Shown: in pieces, positions 1,078 to 47,713 of the stretch
Layout: each line of letters begins with the position of its first letter
Numbering within the stretch: position 1 is the first letter of the stretch
IMG/VR virus record: IMGVR_UViG_2541047774_000010
Length of the DNA stretch: 47,713 nt
Direction: 5' to 3' (one strand)
Source: a virus
Lineage: Duplodnaviria > Heunggongvirae > Uroviricota > Caudoviricetes
Notes under the pieces: model-generated
What the model was told of the DNA's origin: nothing
What the model saw: the letters and a program-made list of their open reading frames with translations, nothing else
The model's database searches: none
Translations under genes and position numbers: made by a program

Positions 1078-2313
1078 ATGGCGCTGTCTGATGCGTGGTT
1101 GCGTTCAGTCGTTGGAAAGGAACGTGATAAGGTTTTGGTTAAATCCGATCGTGATGGTCTGTCTGTCAGAGTATCACCGAAAGGTCGCGTAGTGTTCCAA
1201 TATCGTTATCAATGGGCAGGGAAAGGTGAGCGCCTTGATATCGGAACTTACCCGGCAACTGGATTAAAAGAGGCCAGAGAAGAAGTTATCCGTCTCCGTG
1301 GTGAACTCGAGTCAAACCGCAATCCACGATTAGTCAAGCAGGCTGAAAAACGAAAAGCTACTGAAGCCATGACGGTAGAGTCTGTGATCCGTGCCTGGTA
1401 TGAAGCATATTGTGTAAAAAATAAAAAAGGTTCTGAACAGATACTCCGCTCGTTTGAGCTGCACCTGTTCTCTAAAATCGGGAATATCCCTCACGATGCA
1501 GCTACATTGCATGATTGGTTAGAAGTCCTGGAGCCTCTTAGCACCAAGACTCCAGCAATAGTAGACCGATTGCTAATTAACGCAAAGCAGGCTCATGTCT
1601 GGGCGTATAAGAGAAAGCTCATTGAAACTCGCCCACTGTCGGATATCACGGGTAAAGATATGGATATCCGTAAAGGTCAGAAAAAACGGTTTCTGACACA
1701 TGATGAAATTAACATCCTTTATGCTGCGATCGATGGTTCTCGAATGGTTCCTAAATACCGAGCCTTCATTAAACTATTGCTGCATTTTGGTTGCCGTAGT
1801 TCAGAGCTAATTACTGCTAGGGTGGATGATTTTGATTTCATAAATAAGGTATGGACTGTACCACCAGAACGACATAAGACTGGGGACATAACAGGCGAAC
1901 CGCTAAAGCGGCCCATTATTGAACCGGTTGAAGAGCTTATAAAATACGTTATCTCTATGAACAACGGTTCCGATATGCTTTTTACTAAGGAAGGAAGCAG
2001 GGAGCCAGTTGGTCGGACATCATTGCAGTCGCTGCCTTACAATTTAATGCAGTTCGCATGGCGACGTTTGGGGTATCAATTTCCTCATTGGTCTCTTCAT
2101 GATTTGAGACGAACAGCACGAACAAACTTTTCTGATCTTACTGCTCCTCATATTGCTGAAATAATGCTTGGTCATAAACTGCCAGGTGTATGGCAAGTTT
2201 ATGATAAGAGCGATTATCTAGAAGAACAGCGTAAAGCTTACTGGGCATGGTGGGAGAGGGTTGAATCGATCGTTACTTGTACTGACTTAATCTCCAACGG
2301 ACAGTTTGCGTAG
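1078..2313 (+). CDS. int: Phage tyrosine integrase (P4/CP4-57 type, N-terminal arm-binding domain)
   Basis: 411-aa ORF; N-terminal LSVRVSPKGRVVFQYRYQWAGKGERLDIGTYP is typical of the DUF4102 arm-binding domain; C-terminal HDLRRTARTNF catalytic region; position immediately inside the attL junction. Confidence 0.93.
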   Translation: MALSDAWLRSVVGKERDKVLVKSDRDGLSVRVSPKGRVVFQYRYQWAGKGERLDIGTYPATGLKEAREEVIRLRGELESNRNPRLVKQAEKRKATEAMTVESVIRAWYEAYCVKNKKGSEQILRSFELHLFSKIGNIPHDAATLHDWLEVLEPLSTKTPAIVDRLLINAKQAHVWAYKRKLIETRPLSDITGKDMDIRKGQKKRFLTHDEINILYAAIDGSRMVPKYRAFIKLLLHFGCRSSELITARVDDFDFINKVWTVPPERHKTGDITGEPLKRPIIEPVEELIKYVISMNNGSDMLFTKEGSREPVGRTSLQSLPYNLMQFAWRRLGYQFPHWSLHDLRRTARTNFSDLTAPHIAEIMLGHKLPGVWQVYDKSDYLEEQRKAYWAWWERVESIVTCTDLISNGQFA

Positions 2314-2471
2314 CCAGAGCGTAATCATATCTGCCAGTCCGCTGCGGATACCTTGTGTACTGGGTTTTTAGCCAGACTACGTTAACCGGTAGCTTCAGTA
2401 TTTGGGGTGTCGGCAGGAGTTTGATGGTTTATTGGGTTACTGTGGGACTAAGGATGTAGGGATGCCAATCG

Positions 2472-3605
2472 ATGAATTATGAAAAATATCATAGCACAAA
2501 CAGAAGCAAGGGTTTGCGAACCTTCTGCTACTTAATTTATTATGTGCAGGTGATTTTTAATGTGATGAAGTGTTTTATGACTCGCGGAAACTTTGATTTT
2601 ATAAACTCTAACGTGGTTTTCTCAGAAGCCGATAAGTCATTGTGGATTGATCTCATTAACACCGATTGTATTTGGTATGATATGATAATTAATCCTCCTG
2701 ATGATATAAGAACAAATAAGATAATAAAGAACTATCTCAGAATTATGGAAAAATATACGAGGGAAAGCTGTGAAAAGAGATTTATTTATTTCTTAGGTTC
2801 AAGAAAAAAAGTGAGGTTTTCAACCAAGAAACAGCCTAGGTATAACCCATTCACAAAAAATATAGTATTCACTCTGTTGATTGGCAAAGAAGAGCGAAAG
2901 CTTCGGATAAAATATTCCTTTTGCACGTTTACGCAGAATGGGGTAGTGAAGGTAACTCCAAATGTTAGAGTAACTGAGAAGTTTCTCTACATTGAATATG
3001 AAAATGGCAATTTATGTGTGATGTCAGTTCATGATTTCGTAAACGGACATTATATTGATTTAGGAATTCATACAGAAGTGCATTACGTAGGATATACACG
3101 TCATCCGCATCGGCGCCCTGTTGATTTTATTCACCGTGGCTTATCAAAGATGCTGTATAGCGTTTCAAATGACGATAATGATTTTTTTGTTTGTTTTAGT
3201 ATATTTAATCCAAGGATTATATCTCTGAATAATAAATGTAATGTGGTCTTTAATATTTCAAATTCTCTACTGGATGAAATTGATGTTGATAATGAGGGGA
3301 GAATTATTGAAAACTGCTTAATACGTTACTTTGATCCTAAGCTTCAAGATGATGACAAGGAAAGTAAAAGGTCAGATTTAAATAAAATGTTTATGGACCT
3401 GGTGGAAAATAAAAAAATTAAAAAAATATACGTTAATTTTCAATATGAAAGGAATAATGAGTATTTCTGCTTTTACTCTAAAGTTGTTCCGCCGAAATTT
3501 CATCATTTCTTTGTGTTGGATTTTTCTGATGGCAAGATAAATATTGATAGAGACCAGGATATGATGACTCAGATGGCATTGTGCATGGGGTATTATAATT
3601 ATTAA
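2472..3605 (+). CDS. Hypothetical protein, AT-rich cargo gene of unknown function (start may be internal, near 2562-2577)
   Basis: 377-aa ORF in visibly AT-rich DNA (not quantified) unlike flanking phage genes; Lys/Asn/Ile/Tyr/Phe-rich; no family recognised; possible N-terminal hydrophobic stretch CYLIYYVQVIFNV; AGGGA 10 nt upstream of ATG 2472. Confidence 0.6.
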   Translation: MNYEKYHSTNRSKGLRTFCYLIYYVQVIFNVMKCFMTRGNFDFINSNVVFSEADKSLWIDLINTDCIWYDMIINPPDDIRTNKIIKNYLRIMEKYTRESCEKRFIYFLGSRKKVRFSTKKQPRYNPFTKNIVFTLLIGKEERKLRIKYSFCTFTQNGVVKVTPNVRVTEKFLYIEYENGNLCVMSVHDFVNGHYIDLGIHTEVHYVGYTRHPHRRPVDFIHRGLSKMLYSVSNDDNDFFVCFSIFNPRIISLNNKCNVVFNISNSLLDEIDVDNEGRIIENCLIRYFDPKLQDDDKESKRSDLNKMFMDLVENKKIKKIYVNFQYERNNEYFCFYSKVVPPKFHHFFVLDFSDGKINIDRDQDMMTQMALCMGYYNY

Positions 3606-3814
3606 TATTTCGCCTGATGCCAACTCAAAATCTTTTTTGTCGCATCCATTGTGGATTAATATTCAGAGGTAAGGGGTATCTGCGGAATTTATATTTTGCA
3701 GGATGAGCATACAATACATGATATAACATCTGTTTTTGGCACAGAGCATATAGTCAGATTATGTTTAGTTCTGTGCCATAGATGGATATTATCTCACCTC
3801 TTGGCTAACTCTCA

Positions 3815-4009
3815 TTACTCAATAACTCCAGCAAATCTGTATATTTTGCGTGATGCCCATTTATTTGGGCAGGATTTAATATCAGGATCTGGAAAATCTG
3901 GCCTGTATTTCTGGCCTGTCCTCCTGTTTACGCTGTTCCAGCGAAGCACCGTCGATATTGAAACGCCACAGAATTCGGCGACTTGTTTTGTTGTCATTAA
4001 GTTGCTCAT
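3815..4009 (-). CDS. AlpA/excisionase-family HTH DNA-binding protein (putative Xis or regulator)
   Basis: 64-aa ORF with strong RBS (GGAGGGG); TKQVAEFCGVSISTVLRW helix-turn-helix followed by YRPDFPDPDIK...KIYRF, resembling the AlpA/Xis pattern. Confidence 0.5.
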   Translation of the reverse strand: MSNLMTTKQVAEFCGVSISTVLRWNSVNRRTGQKYRPDFPDPDIKSCPNKWASRKIYRFAGVIE

Positions 4010-4043
4010 TGCTACCCCTCCAGCGGTTGTTCAGTTGAAAGAC

Positions 4044-4580
4044 TCATGCGCATGTGCGTAACTCCGATAACTCGTTAAAGCGTTCCATAAACATCCCGTA
4101 GGCATGGCCTGGCGACAGTGGAATAACTTTGAACATCTCTGTGGCAGAGATGCCTTCCAGTACTGGCCAGAAAGAGCCATCATCAAGCCCGAGATCGCGG
4201 CGTTCGGTTGCCAGCATGATGAGATCGGCATATTTCACGGGTGTACTCATAACCGGGGGTAACCCGTATTTCTCACGGATTACTGTGTCTATTTTTTCTT
4301 CCATCCGTTTATAGTCAGGAAGAAAGCGTTTCAGTGGTGCGGGGATGTCCTGGCAATACGCTTCTGTTGCATCATGCATTAACGCTTCAAAAGCAAATTC
4401 CTGCGGTACCAGCTGGCTGCAAAGCACCGCATGTTGGGCGACGCTGTAGAAGTGTGAAAGATGACCGGCAAAGCGACAGATATTTGAAAGGGAAACCGCG
4501 ATATCGTTAATATCGATGTCGTCTTTATTTATCCTGTCATAATAAAAATGCTTCCCGGAAAAAGTTTTAATAAATGACAT
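4044..4580 (-). CDS. yfdR: HD-domain phosphohydrolase, YfdR-like
   Basis: 178 aa from MSFIKTF with RBS GGAGAA; H...HD motif (SVAQHA...ALMHDATEAY); length and sequence resemble CPS-53 YfdR as recalled. Confidence 0.75.
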   Translation of the reverse strand: MSFIKTFSGKHFYYDRINKDDIDINDIAVSLSNICRFAGHLSHFYSVAQHAVLCSQLVPQEFAFEALMHDATEAYCQDIPAPLKRFLPDYKRMEEKIDTVIREKYGLPPVMSTPVKYADLIMLATERRDLGLDDGSFWPVLEGISATEMFKVIPLSPGHAYGMFMERFNELSELRTCA

Positions 4581-4707
4581 TTTGTTCTCCACGTATATGC
4601 GTTGCACCGTGCTGAATTCTGGTAAAAGGAAGCCCTCACCATCTGGCGATTATTGGGTAAATTATGTTGACATAAATGCCCCCGCAGGGGCATTTGCAGT
4701 AATGAAA

Positions 4708-5532
4708 TCAGGCGGTGAAAGTACCAATAAAGGTTTCTACTTTGCTGTCTTTGAATTTCTCAACAAGCAGATCACGAAATTCGTTAGCCATTTCTTCCTG
4801 CACCGCTTCCAGCTGAATAATGCGCAGAACCAGTACAGGACGATCGCCAGTGATAATGCTGAGGCGTAATTTAAACGGACGTTCTTTCAGACCTTCAAAC
4901 GGAACGCATTTAAATTCAAATGCCACTGGCATAATGTCTTTGGTCTTCGCTTCGACAGACTCCATCAGGGAGCGTTTGCCGCTGAAGTCATTATCTTCAA
5001 AATCAGCGGTCTGGTTCGCTTCAATTGTGATTTTACGGATCGCCGCAGCCGCTTTGGTTGCCTGAATGGCGTCACCATTAGCATCAAAGCCCACAAGGTA
5101 GTCGGCCCAGTCTTCAATCCATTCTGCCAGTGACTTCTGGGAGTTACGCTCGCCGTTAACAGACAACAGGGCAGAGAACGGTGCTGTCTTTTTCAGTTTG
5201 AGAGTGGCGGTGTTATCTGCGTGACCTGGTTCATCAATAGTACCCAGGTTAAGCACACTGACTGCTCGCATATTATCGGCATCGATAAAGCAGCGGGTGC
5301 CTTCATCTGCAAGATCTTTAGAATAACGGGTAAAGTCATCGATGCTGGCAGTGGAAAGCGCACCACGGAAACGGAAGCGATTTAAATTAAATTTTTCCAG
5401 ATCATGAATGCGGAAATTCTCAGGCAATGCCACAGCATCGGCACCAATCTTACTGATAATTTCATTAACACCCTGAGCAGAAATAAGGGCATGGATTTGA
5501 TTAATTGCGGTTGCGTCTAAGTTCTGAGACAT
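4708..5532 (-). CDS. yfdQ: DUF2303-family protein, YfdQ-like
   Basis: 274-aa ORF; length and sequence resemble CPS-53 YfdQ as recalled; same gene order as yfdP-yfdQ-yfdR. Confidence 0.75.
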
Positions 5533-21779: not shown

Positions 21780-22646
21780 CTAAGCGAGGTTCTGGTTTTC
21801 AAATTGTTCCGGACTGAGGCCGCCACACCAACTGTGCCGCCGCCACCGATTGTAATCACATTCGATATAATTAAACACCGTTGCCCGCATTATTTCCCGG
21901 CTGATAAAGTGTTCTCCATGGATACATTCCACTTTCAGCGAATGAAAGAAGCTTTCCACGCAGGCATTATCGTAGCAGCAACCTTTTGCGCTCATACTTC
22001 CACGCAGATTATGCCGCTTCAGTTGCGCCTGATAATCTGCTGAACAGTACTGGCCTCCACGGTCCGTGTGAACGATAACGTTCCGGGGCCTCTTACGCCG
22101 CCACAGCGCCATCTGCAGGGCATCGCAGGCCAGTTGCGCCGTCATGCGTGGCGACATTGACCAGCCAATAACGGCACGTGACCACAGGTCAATGACCACT
22201 GCCAGATACAGCCAGCCTTCATCTGTACGTAAGTACGTGATGTCTCCTGCCCACTTCTGGTTCGGGCCACTGGCGTAAAAATCCTGCTCCAACAGATTTT
22301 CTGACACAGGCAGGCCGTGTGCGCGGTAGCTGACCGGGCTGAACTTCCGGGAGGCCTTTGCCCTCAGTCCCTGACGGCGCAGGCTTGCCGCCACGGTTTT
22401 TACGTTAAAGGGGTAACCCTGAGCACGCAGTTCATCCGTCAGGCGTGGGGCACCGTAACGCTGTTTTGACCGGGTAAAAGCCGCGAGGACAACGCTGTCG
22501 CAGTGTTGGCGGAACTGCTGACGCGTGCTTATCCTTGTCCGCCGCTGACACCACGTATACCAGCCGCTGCGGGCCACCCGGAGCACGCGGCACATTGCTT
22601 TGATGCTGAACTCAGCCTGATGTTTTTCAATAAAGACATACTTCAT
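21780..22646 (-). CDS. insF: IS3 transposase OrfB (expressed as OrfAB by -1 frameshift)
   Basis: 288 aa [21 protein letters not shown]..., matching IS3 InsF as recalled. Confidence 0.93.
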
Positions 22647-38351: not shown

Positions 38352-41753
<3,402 letters not shown>

Positions 41754-41770
41754 ATTTTATAACCCATAAC

Positions 41771-41796
41771 GGGCGTCAGAAATGACGCCTTTTTTA
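41771..41796 (+). terminator. Intrinsic terminator after J
   Basis: GGCGTCA-GAAA-TGACGCC hairpin followed by T6. Confidence 0.65.
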
Positions 41797-41819
41797 TTGC
41801 AGAAAAGCGAGAGGTAATT

Positions 41820-42419
41820 ATGCGTAAACTTTATGCCACCATTTTGTCCGCAGCCATCTGTCTGGCCGTATCCGGTGCGCCTGCATGGGCGTCTGAACAT
41901 CAGTCCACGCTGAGCGCGGGCTATCTTCATGCCTCGACGAACGTTTCCGGCAGCGATGATCTGAACGGGATTAACGTGAAATACCGTTATGAGTTTACGG
42001 ACACACTGGGGCTGGTGACGTCATTCAGCTATGCAGGAGACAAGAATCGCCAGCTTACCCGTTACAGCGATACCCGCTGGCATGAAGATTCAGTGCGTAA
42101 CCGCTGGTTCAGCGTGATGGCGGGGCCGTCTGTACGCGTGAATGAATGGTTCAGCGCGTATGCGATGGCGGGTGTGGCTTACAGCCGTGTGTCGACTTTC
42201 TCCGGGGATTATCTCCGCGTAACTGACAACAAGGGGAAAACGCACGATGTGCTGACCGGAAGTGATGACGGTCGCCACAGCAACACGTCTCTGGCGTGGG
42301 GGGCTGGCGTGCAGTTTAACCCGACCGAATCCGTGGCCATTGATATTGCTTATGAAGGCTCCGGCAGTGGTGACTGGCGCACTGACGGTTTCATCGTGGG
42401 TGTCGGTTATAAATTCTGA
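41820..42419 (+). CDS. lom: Lom outer membrane protein (Ail/Lom family moron)
   Basis: 199 aa; signal peptide [24 protein letters not shown]; matches lambda Lom as recalled; flanked by its own terminators. Confidence 0.9.
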
Positions 42420-42445
42420 TTAGCCAGGTAACACAGTGTTATGAC

Positions 42446-42472
42446 AGCCCGCCGGTTCAGGCGGGCTTTTTT
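42446..42472 (+). terminator. Intrinsic terminator after lom
   Basis: AGCCCGCC-GGTTCA-GGCGGGCT hairpin followed by T6. Confidence 0.7.
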
Positions 42473-42483
42473 GTGGGGTGAAT

Positions 42484-45400
42484 ATGGCAGTAAAGATTTC
42501 AGGTGTACTGAAAGACGGCACAGGAAAACCGGTACAGAACTGCACAATCCAGCTGAAAGCAAAACGTAACAGTACCACGGTGGTGGTGAACACGCTGGCC
42601 TCAGAAAATCCGGATGAAGCCGGGCGTTACAGTATGGACGTTGAGTACGGTCAGTACAGCGTTATTCTGTTGGTGGAGGGATTCCCGCCGTCACATGCCG
42701 GGACCATCACCGTGTATGAAGATTCTCAACCCGGTACGCTGAATGATTTTCTCGGTGCCATGACGGAGGATGATACCCGTCCGGAGGCACTGCGACGTTT
42801 TGAACTGATGGTGGAAGAGGTGGCGCGTAACGCGTCCGCGGTGGCACAGAACACAGCAGCCGCGAAGAAGTCAGCCAGCAATGCCAGCACATCAGCCCGT
42901 GAGGCGGCAACCCATGCGACTGATGCTGCAGGCTCAGCACGCGCAGCCAGCACGTCAGCCGGACAGGCCGCGTCATCGGCTCAGTCAGCGTCTTCCAGCG
43001 CAGGAACGGCATCAGCAAAGGCCACTGAAGCATCAAAAAGTGCTGCCGCTGCAGAGTCCTCAAAAAGCGCGGCGGCTACCAGTGCCGGTGCGGCGAAAAC
43101 GTCAGAAACGAATGCGGCAGCGTCACAACAATCAGCAGCCACTTCTGCATCCACCGCGACCACGAAAGCGTCAGAAGCAGCCACTTCAGCACGGGATGCG
43201 TCGGCTTCAAAAGAGGCGGCAAAATCATCAGAAACGAACGCAGCCTCGAGCGCCAGCAGCGCAGCTTCCTCGGCAACGGCGGCAGGAAATTCCGCGAAGG
43301 CGGCAAAAACGTCCGAGACGAACGCCAGGTCTTCTGAGACGGCAGCGGGACAGAGCGCCTCAGCTGCGGCAGGCTCAAAAACAGCGGCTGCGTCGTCTGC
43401 CAGTGCCGCGTCAACAAGTGCCGGGCAGGCCTCAGTCAGTGCCACCGCCGCCGGAAAATCGGCAGAAAGCGCCGCATCATCCGCTTCAACAGCCACAACG
43501 AAGGCTGGCGAAGCCACTGAGCAGGCCACGGCAGCAGCGAGGTCAGCTTCCGCAGCGAAGACATCCGAAACGAACGCGAAAGCGTCGGAAACCCGTGCAG
43601 AATCCTCAAAAACGGCAGCGGCATCGTCCGCCAGTTCGGCGGCGTCATCGGCCTCATCGGCGTCTGCTTCAAAAGATGAGGCGACCAGACAGGCGTCAGC
43701 AGCGAAGGGCAGCGCCACGACGGCATCCACGAAGGCGACAGAGGCTGCTGGTAGTGCGACGGCAGCAGCTCAGAGCAAAAGTACGGCGGAATCTGCAGCA
43801 ACGCGCGCTGAGACAGCGGCAAAACGGGCAGAGGATATTGCATCCGCCGTGGCGCTTGAGGATGCGAGCACGACGAAAAAGGGGATAGTACAGCTCAGCA
43901 GTGCGACCAACAGTACGTCTGAAACGCTGGCGGCAACGCCAAAGGCAGTAAAATCAGCCTATGACAATGCAGAGAAACGTCTGCAGAAAGACCAGAACGG
44001 CGCTGATATACCCGATAAGGGACGCTTCCTGAACAACATTAACGCGGTCAGTAAAACAGACTTTGCTGATAAGCGTGGTATGCGTTATGTGCGGGTTAAC
44101 GCTCCTGCAGGTGCAACATCTGGAAAATATTACCCTGTTGTTGTTATGCGTTCTGCTGGCTCAGTAAGCGAACTGGCATCAAGGGTCATTATCACCACGG
44201 CAACGCGAACCGCAGGCGATCCGATGAATAACTGCGAGTTTAACGGATTTGTTATGCCTGGTGGCTGGACTGACAGGGGGCGTTATGCTTATGGAATGTT
44301 CTGGCAATATCAAAACAATGAACGAGCCATCCACTCAATAATGATGAGTAATAAGGGCGATGATTTGCGCTCTGTGTTCTATGTTGATGGCGCTGCTTTC
44401 CCTGTTTTTGCGTTTATCGAAGATGGCCTGTCAATATCCGCACCTGGTGCTGATCTCGTTGTTAATGATACGACCTATAAGTTTGGGGCAACAAATCCAG
44501 CGACTGAATGTATCGCGGCGGACGTTATCCTTGATTTTAAGAGTGGGCGTGGTTTTTATGAGTCTCATTCGTTAATCGTTAACGATAACTTGTCGTGCAA
44601 AAAACTTTTTGCCACAGACGAAATTGTAGCGCGTGGTGGTAATCAGATTCGAATGATAGGTGGGGAGTATGGTGCATTATGGCGTAATGATGGCGCTAAA
44701 ACTTACCTGCTGCTTACCAATCAAGGTGATGTTTATGGTGGCTGGAATACATTAAGACCGTTTGCTATTGATAACGCAACCGGCGAGCTGGTTATTGGAA
44801 CCAAACTGTCCGCAAGTCTGAACGGTAATGCATTAACAGCAACAAAGCTGCAAACGCCAAGACGGGTTTCTGGGGTTGAGTTTGATGGTTCCAAAGATAT
44901 TACTTTAACCGCCGCGCATGTGGCTGCTTTTGCCAGAAGAGCAACGGATACGTATGCCGATGCGGATGGGGGCGTTCCATGGAATGCCGAATCAGGCGCT
45001 TACAATGTCACCCGCTCTGGCGACAGCTATATTCTGGTTAACTTCTATACCGGAGTCGGAAGTTGCCGGACCCTGCAGATGAAGGCGCATTACAGAAATG
45101 GAGGTCTGTTCTACCGTTCCTCAAGAGATGGCTATGGTTTTGAGGAAGACTGGGCAGAAGTTTATACCTCGAAAAATCTTCCACCAGAAAGCTACCCAGT
45201 CGGCGCACCAATCCCGTGGCCATCAGATACCGTTCCGTCTGGTTATGCCCTGATGCAGGGGCAGACTTTTGACAAATCTGCATACCCGAAACTTGCAGCC
45301 GCTTATCCGTCAGGCGTGATCCCTGATATGCGTAGCTGGACGATTAAGGGCAAACCTGCCAGTGGTCGGGCCGTATTGTCTCAGGAACAGGACGGCATTA

Positions 45401-45837
45401 AATCGCACACCCACAGCGCCAGCGCATCCAGTACGGATTTGGGGACGAAAACCACATCGTCGTTTGATTACGGCACTAAATCCACGAATAACACCGGGGC
45501 GCATACGCACAGTGTGAGCGGTACAGCCGCAAGTGCCGGAAACCATACTCATAGTGTCACAGGCGCATCAGCAGTCAGCCAGTGGTCACAAAATGGGTCA
45601 GTACATAAGGTAGTGTCTGCGGCCAGTGTGAATACAAGTGCTGCAGGAGCGCACACTCATAGTGTTAGCGGCACAGCCGCATCTGCAGGTGCTCACGCAC
45701 ATACTGTCGGTATTGGTGCTCATACGCACTCTGTTGCGATTGGCTCACATGGACACACTATCACCGTTAACGCTGCTGGTAACGCGGAAAACACCGTCAA
45801 AAACATCGCATTTAACTACATTGTGAGGCTTGCATAA
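42484..45837 (+). CDS. stf: Side tail fibre protein Stf (repeat-rich shaft, HxH-repeat tip)
   Basis: Start [26 protein letters not shown] as in lambda Stf; long Ala/Ser/Thr repeat shaft; C-terminal run of HTHS/HAHT repeats typical of gp37-like tips. Confidence 0.9.
42840..43850 (+). repeat. Low-complexity Ala/Ser/Thr tandem repeat region inside stf
   Basis: Reiterated units such as AAKTSETNA and ASSAASS in GC-rich DNA; this region generates the spurious ORFs on both strands in the track. Confidence 0.75.
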
Positions 45838-46412
45838 TGGCATTCAGAATGAGTGAACAACCACGGACCATAAAAATTTATAATCTGCTGGCCGGAACTA
45901 ATGAATTTATTGGTGAAGGTGACGCATATATTCCGCCTCATACAGGTCTGCCAGCAAACAGTACCGATATTGCACCGCCAGATATTCCGGCAGGCTTCGT
46001 GGCTGTTTTCAACAGTGATGAGGCATCGTGGCATCTCGTTGAAGACCATCGGGGTAAAACGGTTTATGACGTAGCGTCAGGGGACGCGTTATTTATTTCT
46101 GAACTCGGTCCGTTACCGGAAAATGTTACCTGGTTATCGCCGGAAGGGGAGTTTCAGAAGTGGAACGGCACAGCCTGGGTGAAAGATGCAGAAGCAGAAA
46201 AACTGTTCCGGATCCGGGAGGCGGAAGAAACAAAAAACAGCCTGATGCAGGTAGCCAGTGAGCATATTGCGCCGCTTCAGGATGCTGCAGATCTGGAAAT
46301 TGCAACGGAGGAAGAAATCTCGTTGCTGGAAGCATGGAAAAAGTATCGGGTATTGCTGAACCGTGTTGATACGTCAACTGCACAGGATATTGAATGGCCA
46401 GCACTGCCGTAG
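45837..46412 (+). CDS. tfa: Tail fibre assembly protein Tfa
   Basis: 191 aa, translationally coupled to stf (TAATG); typical Tfa N-terminus ([36 protein letters not shown]). Confidence 0.85.
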
Positions 46413-46509
46413 GGTAAAACATATAAATTCTATAATTAGATGTATCTTTCCATTTACGGCAAGGAAGGGGGCTTGGAAGACGTAAAGCATCTCACACCAA
46501 GATTATTTT

Positions 46510-47100
46510 TTATATGTCAGGTGTCTGAAGTTTTGCTTTGGCTCTTAAAATGGTTTGCCGCGAGGTTTTGAATTCCCGGGCAATGGCACTTATACTTACA
46601 CCTGACTTAATCCGTTCGAATACCACCTGTTTCTGTTCTTCATTTAACACAGGTGGTCGACCAAAACGTTTCCCTGCGCCCCGGGCTCTTACTATCCCGG
46701 AATGAGTGCGTTCAAGTAAAAGGTCTCGTTCAAATTCAGCGACTGCTGAAATTACTTGCATCATCATTTTTCCTGTTGGACTGGTCAGGTCAATGCCCCC
46801 CAATGCTAAGCAATGCACTCTGATACCTGTTTCGGTCAGTTGTTCCACTGTTTTCCTGATATCCATTGCATTACAACCAAGGCGATCCAGTTTTGTCACA
46901 ATCAATTGATCACCACATTTCAGGCGAGCAAGCAACCGGTTAAAACCAGGACGCTCACTGGTTGCTGCTGAGCCGCTAATGTGTTCTTCGATTATTTGCT
47001 GAGGTTTGATTTTAAAACCTGCACTTTCGATTTCCCGGCGTTGATTTTCGGTGGTCTGATCCAGCGTTGATATCCGACAGTAAGCAAAAATTCGAGACAT
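46510..47100 (-). CDS. pin: Serine recombinase / DNA invertase, PinQ/PinR-like
   Basis: 196 aa; catalytic Ser in [10 protein letters not shown]-terminal HTH; matches the K-12 prophage invertases PinQ/PinR as recalled. Confidence 0.9.
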
Positions 47101-47479
47101 AGTGAGACTCTATACGAAATTGGTGTACATATCATAATGCATATCCAAAAATTATTTCGCTTATTATTGTACATATTTGTATGTATACGTTCGAAAATAA
47201 ACGAATTCGGATGCAGTCCCGTAATTTTGGTGTAACCAAAAATCGATTTTTTGAAAAATGGCTTTAACTCGGTTTGTTTTTCGAACTCCGGGCGGACTCG
47301 AGGAAGACGAATAATAGTGTTGTATGTTATTTCAACCAGATTTTAAGTTGTTTGGTCGTGGAAAAGTGGAGCAAAATGTTGTTAAAGTGGAAAAATGGTA
47401 AAAAAAGTAGGTTGTTGCGGAATAACGTAGTTGTTGATATTTTTTTAATGCATTGAAAAATTATTTTTCAGGGGGGGTA

Positions 47480-47713
47480 TTACACTTTACCATTTAAATT
47501 TTGGTTGTCTTTAAGAACTGATATCGCTGTTTGTAATAATTCTTTGTTATCCAGCCATGACTTTTTCTTTATGTTTCCTTCAATGTAATCAAGCAATGTT
47601 CTGGTATTGATAGGTCTTCCCTGTTTTGCTACTTCCACGACAGCATCTCCCAGGATAATTCTGACTTCAGGAAGCTGCGCAGGGAACCACTTTAGGGTGT
47701 CTTTTGATTTCAT
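47480..47713 (-). CDS. ydfK: Cold shock-induced small protein YdfK/YnaE-like
   Basis: 77 aa MKSKDTLKWFPAQLPEVRIILGDAVVEVAKQG matches YdfK/YnaE as recalled; the start codon is the last three bases of the window; long AT-rich leader upstream. Confidence 0.8.
   Translation of the reverse strand: MKSKDTLKWFPAQLPEVRIILGDAVVEVAKQGRPINTRTLLDYIEGNIKKKSWLDNKELLQTAISVLKDNQNLNGKV

Follow-up and report, generated by a model that had tools for sequence, protein, structure and literature searches.

A Rac StfR-type side tail fibre gene with a gp37-like tip and a variable head loop in a predicted lambda-like prophage

The side tail fibre Stf of Ur-lambda and the long tail fibre protein gp37 of T4 are well-described relatives of the fibre considered here. 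In Ur-lambda, the StfN collar domain docks on the tail tube, and the homologous residues 102–393 form a proximal trimeric coiled coil, as seen by cryo-electron microscopy and tomography (PMC12617516). In T4, receptor specificity maps to the head loop, the place at which the T4/lambda tip family diverges, and a chaperone gene always lies directly downstream of the gp37-type fibre gene (PMC9659904). A review describes gp37 and lambda Stf alike, with a collar, a six-stranded needle, and a receptor-binding domain. Lambda stf is able to recombine experimentally with stfR of the Rac prophage (PMC3945230). The gene analyzed here lies near the end of a 47,713-nucleotide stretch of viral DNA (IMG/VR record IMGVR_UViG_2541047774_000010; the whole stretch is referred to as the window), for which a preliminary description made from the sequence had proposed a lambda-type side tail fibre. 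The comparisons uphold this proposal: the gene is very probably an allele of the known and abundant StfR-type side tail fibre gene, carried by an apparently complete lambda-like prophage. Earlier work has described the gene and its family, the gp37-like kind of tip, and the mosaic way in which these fibres evolve.

The identification is carried by an exact open reading frame, by matches to the phage_tail_N family and to the lambda Stf N-terminal structure, and by the neighboring J, lom, and tfa genes. The product begins with MAVKISGV, as lambda Stf does, and is collinear over its full length with StfR of the Escherichia coli K-12 Rac prophage (b1372), with 1075 of 1120 positions identical (96%) and a single 3-residue indel. 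The neighbors agree with K-12 as well, the tfaR equivalent at 187/191 and the pinR equivalent at 196/196 residues. Matches over at least 80% of the gene length were found in 1231 of 5426 complete E. coli genomes; the best of these are 99.9% identical in nucleotide sequence, many of them from O145:H28 strains, and the stf of the isolated phage 2H10 is 97.9% identical. NCBIfam holds no family for Stf. The start codon of tfa overlaps the stop codon of stf in TAATG, and the window Tfa shares 183 of 194 positions (94%) with lambda Tfa.

42484–45837, plus strand: stf, side tail fibre gene, an open reading frame with ATG at 42484, 1117 codons, and the stop codon at 45835–45837; Rac stfR-type allele.
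45837–46412, plus strand: tfa, tail fibre assembly chaperone of 191 residues (Pfam Caudo_TAP, E 2e-43).

By sequence comparison, the encoded fibre appears to be a five-part mosaic of attachment domain, rod, junction, middle module, and tip, with exchange taking place at conserved boundaries. The parts are as follows.

42484–42885, plus strand: N-terminal tail-attachment domain, residues 1–134 (Pfam PF08400, phage_tail_N, E 2.8e-71).
42838–43866, plus strand: shaft of 49 uninterrupted heptads, residues 119–461, with the consensus x-A-x-x-S-A-x.
43804–44046, plus strand: junction or putative hinge segment, residues 441–521, common to the Mu tail fibre S (matches to PDB 5yvq and 8ju3).
44047–45186, plus strand: middle module of about 380 residues (522–901), mostly missing from lambda Stf.
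45187–45552, plus strand: gp37-type collar (Pfam Collar at residues 907–953, E 3.7e-11) and first needle half, with HxH motifs at residues 975, 1007, and 1021.
45553–45651, plus strand: hypervariable head loop of 33 residues (1024–1056), the presumed receptor-contact region.
45652–45834, plus strand: second needle half and conserved C-terminus, with HxH motifs at residues 1057, 1071, 1080, and 1089.

The N-terminus is lambda-like, as had been proposed. The attachment domain is about 93% identical to that of Ur-lambda Stf, and residues 1–94 match the N-terminal structure of lambda Stf (PDB 9e7m, E 6e-52), which identifies them by homology as the likely counterpart of the Ur-lambda StfN collar domain.

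The shaft is dominated by three small residues. Ala, Ser, and Thr make up 70–80% of residues ~150–450, against ~20–30% elsewhere in the protein, with Ala at 37%, Ser at 23%, and Thr at 12% over residues ~120–460, and the GC fraction of the DNA is 0.59–0.65 across 42800–43850. The Ala/Ser/Thr-rich composition noted in the preliminary description is thus borne out. The order within this composition is strict at the protein level: the identity autocorrelation gives z = 8–10 at each multiple of seven residues up to a lag of 56, and in the heptad table Ala occupies position 2 in 47 of 50 heptads, Ser position 5 in 37, and Ala position 6 in 34. Judged from this pattern, positions 2 and 5 would correspond to a and d in the core of a coiled coil packed with small residues. 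An AlphaFold2 (AF2) model of the shaft, used for secondary structure only, is helical over residues 99–455 (predicted local distance difference test score, pLDDT, of 83.5). By analogy with Ur-lambda, we infer that three shaft helices form a coiled coil, giving a rod of about 51 nm.

The same region had been described as about 1 kb of reiterated repeats prone to expansion or contraction by recombination; the repetition is present in the protein and not in the DNA. Tandem Repeats Finder reported no shaft array in 42000–46500, its only hit there being a 22-nucleotide scrap at 43640–43661. The direct repeats picked up by a repeat search are degenerate (60–87% identical), with spacings that are mostly multiples of 21 nucleotides, and the longest exact direct repeat in the shaft is 12 nucleotides, compared with a mean of 12.1 and a maximum of 17 in codon-shuffled controls. 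The shaft consists of ordered protein heptads, and its DNA is not a tandem repeat. Two further open reading frames overlap it, at 42881–43888 on the plus strand (335 residues) and at 42981–43730 on the minus strand (249 residues); both were rejected as genes and regarded as low-complexity by-products of a coding sequence rich in GCN and TCN codons. Comparable other-frame open reading frames in phage ev099 are annotated as hypothetical proteins.

Shaft length is nearly invariant among close relatives, being equal in nine of nine close phage relatives, in 112 of 117 measurable close protein clusters, and in 47 of 49 full-span matches, with nucleotide identities as low as 89%, drawn from a spread of E. 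coli genomes. Two close protein clusters are four heptads shorter, and two E. coli genomes have shafts shorter by 14 and 15 heptads. Lambda Stf lacks the equivalent of residues 304–408, which is 15 heptads (105 residues). Across the wider family, deficits of 4, 7, 14, 15 (lambda), 16, 29, and 31 or 32 heptads were seen, and the spacing modulo 7 is kept in 22 of 27 family representatives (50% identity level, both anchor motifs present). Changes in shaft length are rare and almost always involve whole heptads. A contingency locus prone to recombination or slippage, in which fibre length changes often among close relatives, would be in line with the degenerate repeats at multiples of 21 nucleotides and with the whole-heptad differences between family members; it is nonetheless very unlikely, as it is largely refuted by the absence of an array, by an exact-repeat length that matches the codon-shuffle expectation, and by the constant length in close phages, clusters, and genomes. 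Of the proposed expansion and contraction, what remains is a slow change by heptads at the level of the family.

The relatives change to other cassettes directly after the junction segment, which from these alignments appears to be a module boundary and may act as a hinge. The middle module that follows was not mentioned in the preliminary description. Its residues 663–777 resemble the C-terminal trimerisation domain of T4 gp34 (PF21446, E 3e-27; PDB 4uxe and 5nxf), and residues ~813–907 match Pfam gp37_C (PF12604, E 2e-5) and the Mu S/S' chain 8ju3; this internal Mu S/S'-like segment might retain a second, lateral binding site. PhiR29_1 and mEp460 have a different cassette in place of the module, Turner has a diverged version of it, and the module recurs in shorter tail fibre proteins of 662–680 residues. 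Phage mEp460 (mEp460_ev081) carries a 44-residue insertion that duplicates the junction motif. In the E. coli Esc2 genome, the matched span is 132 nucleotides (44 codons) longer than the query, which may represent the mEp460 insertion. Such a tandem duplication of a module boundary may mark a past cassette exchange.

The tip is the most strongly supported of the distal parts. Residues 902–1117 match the crystal structure of the T4 gp37 tip (2XGF) with an E-value of 1.2e-87 (profile E 2.5e-96), and each of the seven HxH motifs is aligned with an HxH motif of gp37, all seven in register. Of the 15 His in the last 222 residues, only one lies outside these motifs, and seven motifs were reached in none of 20,000 residue shuffles. 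The HxH-repeat tip and the gp37-like fold anticipated in the preliminary description are both confirmed at the level of homology, and the tip is assigned a gp37-type fold on these matches. The HxH histidines of gp37 reportedly bind seven iron ions along the needle axis, and those of the present fibre may likewise coordinate metal along the needle, octahedrally and from three chains. The scaffold is 72–79% identical to T4 gp37 (96/122 positions in the collar and first needle half, 47/61 in the second half), the boundaries of collar, needle, and head being taken from the alignment and from secondary sources.

The head loop stands apart from this constant scaffold. While the second needle half is identical to that of most relatives at 59–61 of 61 positions, the head loop shares only 7/34 positions with T4, 5/46 with lambda, and 12/36 with K-12 StfR, and at least six unrelated head-loop versions occur among 11 sequences in which the needle is constant. 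The allele of the window is common: 751 of the 5426 complete E. coli genomes have it, O145:H28 Shiga toxin-producing strains among them, and the tip of the isolated phages 2H10 and PhiR29_1 is the same, with an identical head loop. As the head loop is hypervariable, the receptor is not expected to be readable from its sequence, and a literature search for the StfR receptor returned none.

The J protein bears on the question of receptors, and its receptor-binding part is listed here.

41181–41750, plus strand: J receptor-binding C-terminal part, residues 943–1132, gpJ A8 type.

The window J has the length of lambda J and is 96–100% identical to it over residues 1–900 and 87% identical over residues 901–1000. 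The last ~130 residues are only ~37% identical, with 39/100 and 15/37 positions in the final alignment blocks. Natural J variants reportedly depart from the lambda J sequence beyond residue 964, and two such variants, gpJ A8 and 1A2, deliver DNA via OmpC when lamB is deleted from the host (Brödel et al. 2024, PMC11338833). Against the machine-read gpJ A8 text from the supplement of that paper, the 3' 571 nucleotides of the window J gene show 95.4% identity, with gaps that look like reading drop-outs, while lambda J aligns only with the first 131 nucleotides of that end. The J end is also 100% identical in many long-tailed Stx1a/Stx2a phages, CP-1639, and YYZ-2008. The J protein can thus be called lambda-like over its body and not at its receptor-binding end, and the recognition of LamB by J that had been proposed is not supported by this end, which matches the OmpC-using A8 type instead. 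OmpC is the best-supported guess for the J receptor on this sequence evidence.

Whether the fibre tip also binds OmpC, exactly as the tips of lambda Stf and T4 gp37, is doubtful. Both of these characterised relatives use OmpC and the collar and needle scaffold is close to that of T4, yet it is the head loop that bears the specificity, and there the identity to T4 and lambda falls to the low values given above. In addition, a second OmpC binder would compete with a J of the OmpC-using A8 type, and the Stf of Gifsy-1 binds the lipopolysaccharide core instead. It can be suggested tentatively that the head loop is a specificity allele apart from the OmpC heads of lambda and T4 and that, paired with the A8-type J, it gives the phage two surface targets, e.g., the lipopolysaccharide core or another porin in addition to OmpC. 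The two determinants reassort among phages: Turner combines the J type of the window with the K-12 head, and PhiR29_1 combines the head of the window with a J gene of another length. The comparisons suggest that these fibres evolve mainly by cassette exchange at conserved junctions, at the head loop and in the middle module.

A different source of tip variation could be sought in the gene that follows tfa.

46510–47100, minus strand: serine DNA invertase (Pin/Hin-type, Din family) of 196 residues, identical to K-12 PinR at 196/196 positions.

In Mu, P1, and e14, alternative fibre tips are exchanged through DNA inversion by an invertase encoded next to them. The invertase gene of the window lies 98 nucleotides downstream of tfa on the opposite strand and could switch the distal fibre in the manner of the Mu G, P1 C, and e14 P segments, the more so as residues 441–521 of the fibre are homologous to Mu S (chain residues 91–172), a region that presumably includes the part encoded at the Mu gix site. 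Against such a switch, no inverted repeats join stf to the tfa–pin spacer, no AAACCNNGGTTT-type core occurs at up to two mismatches in 41754–47713, the DNA at the gix-homologous position is not gix-like, and no second, opposite set of tip and tfa lies between tfa and pin. The same fixed arrangement is found in K-12 Rac and in phages 2H10, Kati, Turner, and mEp460. An invertase switch at this fibre is accordingly considered extremely improbable; to judge from the sequence, the invertase does not act on this fibre, and any target would lie elsewhere.

Several points weigh against the reading of the gene as a working StfR-type fibre of this build. The AF2 shaft model turns back on itself at residues ~276–280, which is probably a monomer artefact; the Ur-lambda authors met a similar monomer artefact with full-length Stf (PMC12617516). 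The AF2 monomer model of residues 515–906, built on a 15-sequence alignment, reached a pLDDT of only 42.8 and is unusable. Three shaft-length classes in the family (spacings 148, 103, and 395) are out of heptad phase, and the literature consulted reports no experiment on this stf allele. Expression of this copy in virions is not guaranteed. The namesake prophage Rac is cryptic and defective, in the near-identical strain N51 the annotation puts an IS3-family transposase between the lysis and small terminase genes, and at the corresponding place the window has an open reading frame of 288 residues (21780–22646, minus strand). These last points would suit a non-functional relic that makes no fibre, like stfR in the defective K-12 Rac. 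A relic is nevertheless improbable: the 1117-codon frame is intact and coupled to tfa, the window has a full set of head, tail, and lysis open reading frames, and free-living phages carry genes that are 97–98% identical. A broken copy looks different, as in phage ev099 (stf at 1501–4902 of its record), where a stop follows residue 722 and the annotation splits the gene into two tail fibre genes; the break may be a frameshift, a nonsense change, or an assembly error. As for the 288-residue frame of the window, late transcription could be affected if it is an insertion.

The StfR-type side tail fibre is thus retained as the reading of the gene, and a working can be proposed for its observed parts, namely an intact gene with its domain homologies, heptad periodicity, seven conserved HxH motifs, and alternation of variable and constant segments. 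The proposal is drawn by homology with Ur-lambda Stf and T4 gp37. Three Stf chains would assemble with the aid of the Tfa chaperone encoded directly downstream, and their N-terminal domains (residues 1–94) would clamp the tail just above its tip. The 49-heptad coiled coil with its Ala/Ser core would form a stiff proximal rod of ~51 nm, 15 heptads (~16 nm) longer than that of lambda, and the conserved junction segment would serve as a hinge. Beyond it, the ~380-residue middle module, with its parts like T4 gp34, Pfam gp37_C, and the Mu tail fibre S, would lengthen the distal arm. The last 216 residues would form a gp37 collar, a six-stranded needle held by the seven HxH sites (iron-binding in T4), and a small head. 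The 33-residue loop of this head may contact the surface receptor, speeding reversible adsorption before irreversible binding by J. The role of the fibre in adsorption is a likely one by analogy.

The setting of the gene is that of a lambda-like phage. J (38355–41753) and lom (41820–42419), recognized by Pfam J and Ail_Lom, lie upstream of stf, and the annotations of strain N51 and of phages show the same order, J–lom–stf–tfa. The window is collinear with the annotated N51 genome, which places it as a lambda-like prophage in the yjjG–prfC interval, as in O145:H28 and other strains; by the N51 comparison, its genes include those for integrase, immunity, and lysis, for an HK97-type head, and for a lambda-type tail. 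To judge from the collinear annotation of N51, the window starts (15–692) where the host gene yjjG lies, and it ends (47480–47713) in a ydfK/ynaE-like cold-shock gene. Two strong terminator-like hairpins with T-runs flank lom, at 41771–41790 and 42446–42467. The second ends 16 nucleotides 5' of the stf start, and expression of stf and tfa therefore presumably needs read-through by antiterminated late transcription.

The discovery value of these results is small and their practical value modest. The prophage pairs a common head allele with a J tip type already used for OmpC-targeted delivery particles, and once the receptor of this head allele is known, host-range engineering would have a further natural Stf/J pair to draw on. 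The shaft lengths, quantised in heptads, offer a natural series on fibre length versus adsorption.

Among the known systems, StfR/TfaR/PinR of K-12 Rac is the closest, sharing the 49 heptads, the middle module, the collar and needle, and the downstream genes. The differences lie in the head, which is identical at only ~26 of 50 positions over residues ~1001–1050 and includes the 3-residue indel, so a different receptor specificity is possible, and in the element itself, which is decayed in K-12, whereas the stf of the window lies in an apparently complete prophage at yjjG–prfC. Ur-lambda Stf (774 residues) has the same heptad type, junction motif, gp37-like tip, and position after J and lom, but its shaft is 15 heptads shorter and it is without most of the middle module. 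Lambda Stf further differs in an extra SFDYGTK repeat, an eighth HxH motif, and an unrelated head loop (5/46). T4 gp37 residues 811–1026 (2XGF) show the same collar, needle, and seven HxH motifs without shifts, with a chaperone gene directly downstream; gp37, however, belongs to the long fibre of a myovirus and is served by the chaperone gp38, in contrast to the siphovirus side fibre and the lambda Tfa type of the window. Mu S/S' is homologous to residues 441–521 and 813–907 (chains 5yvq and 8ju3) and is likewise adjoined by a Din-family invertase gene. Unlike the Mu G segment, the window has no crossover sites or alternative cassette, and the extreme tip of its fibre is of the gp37 type and not of the Mu type.

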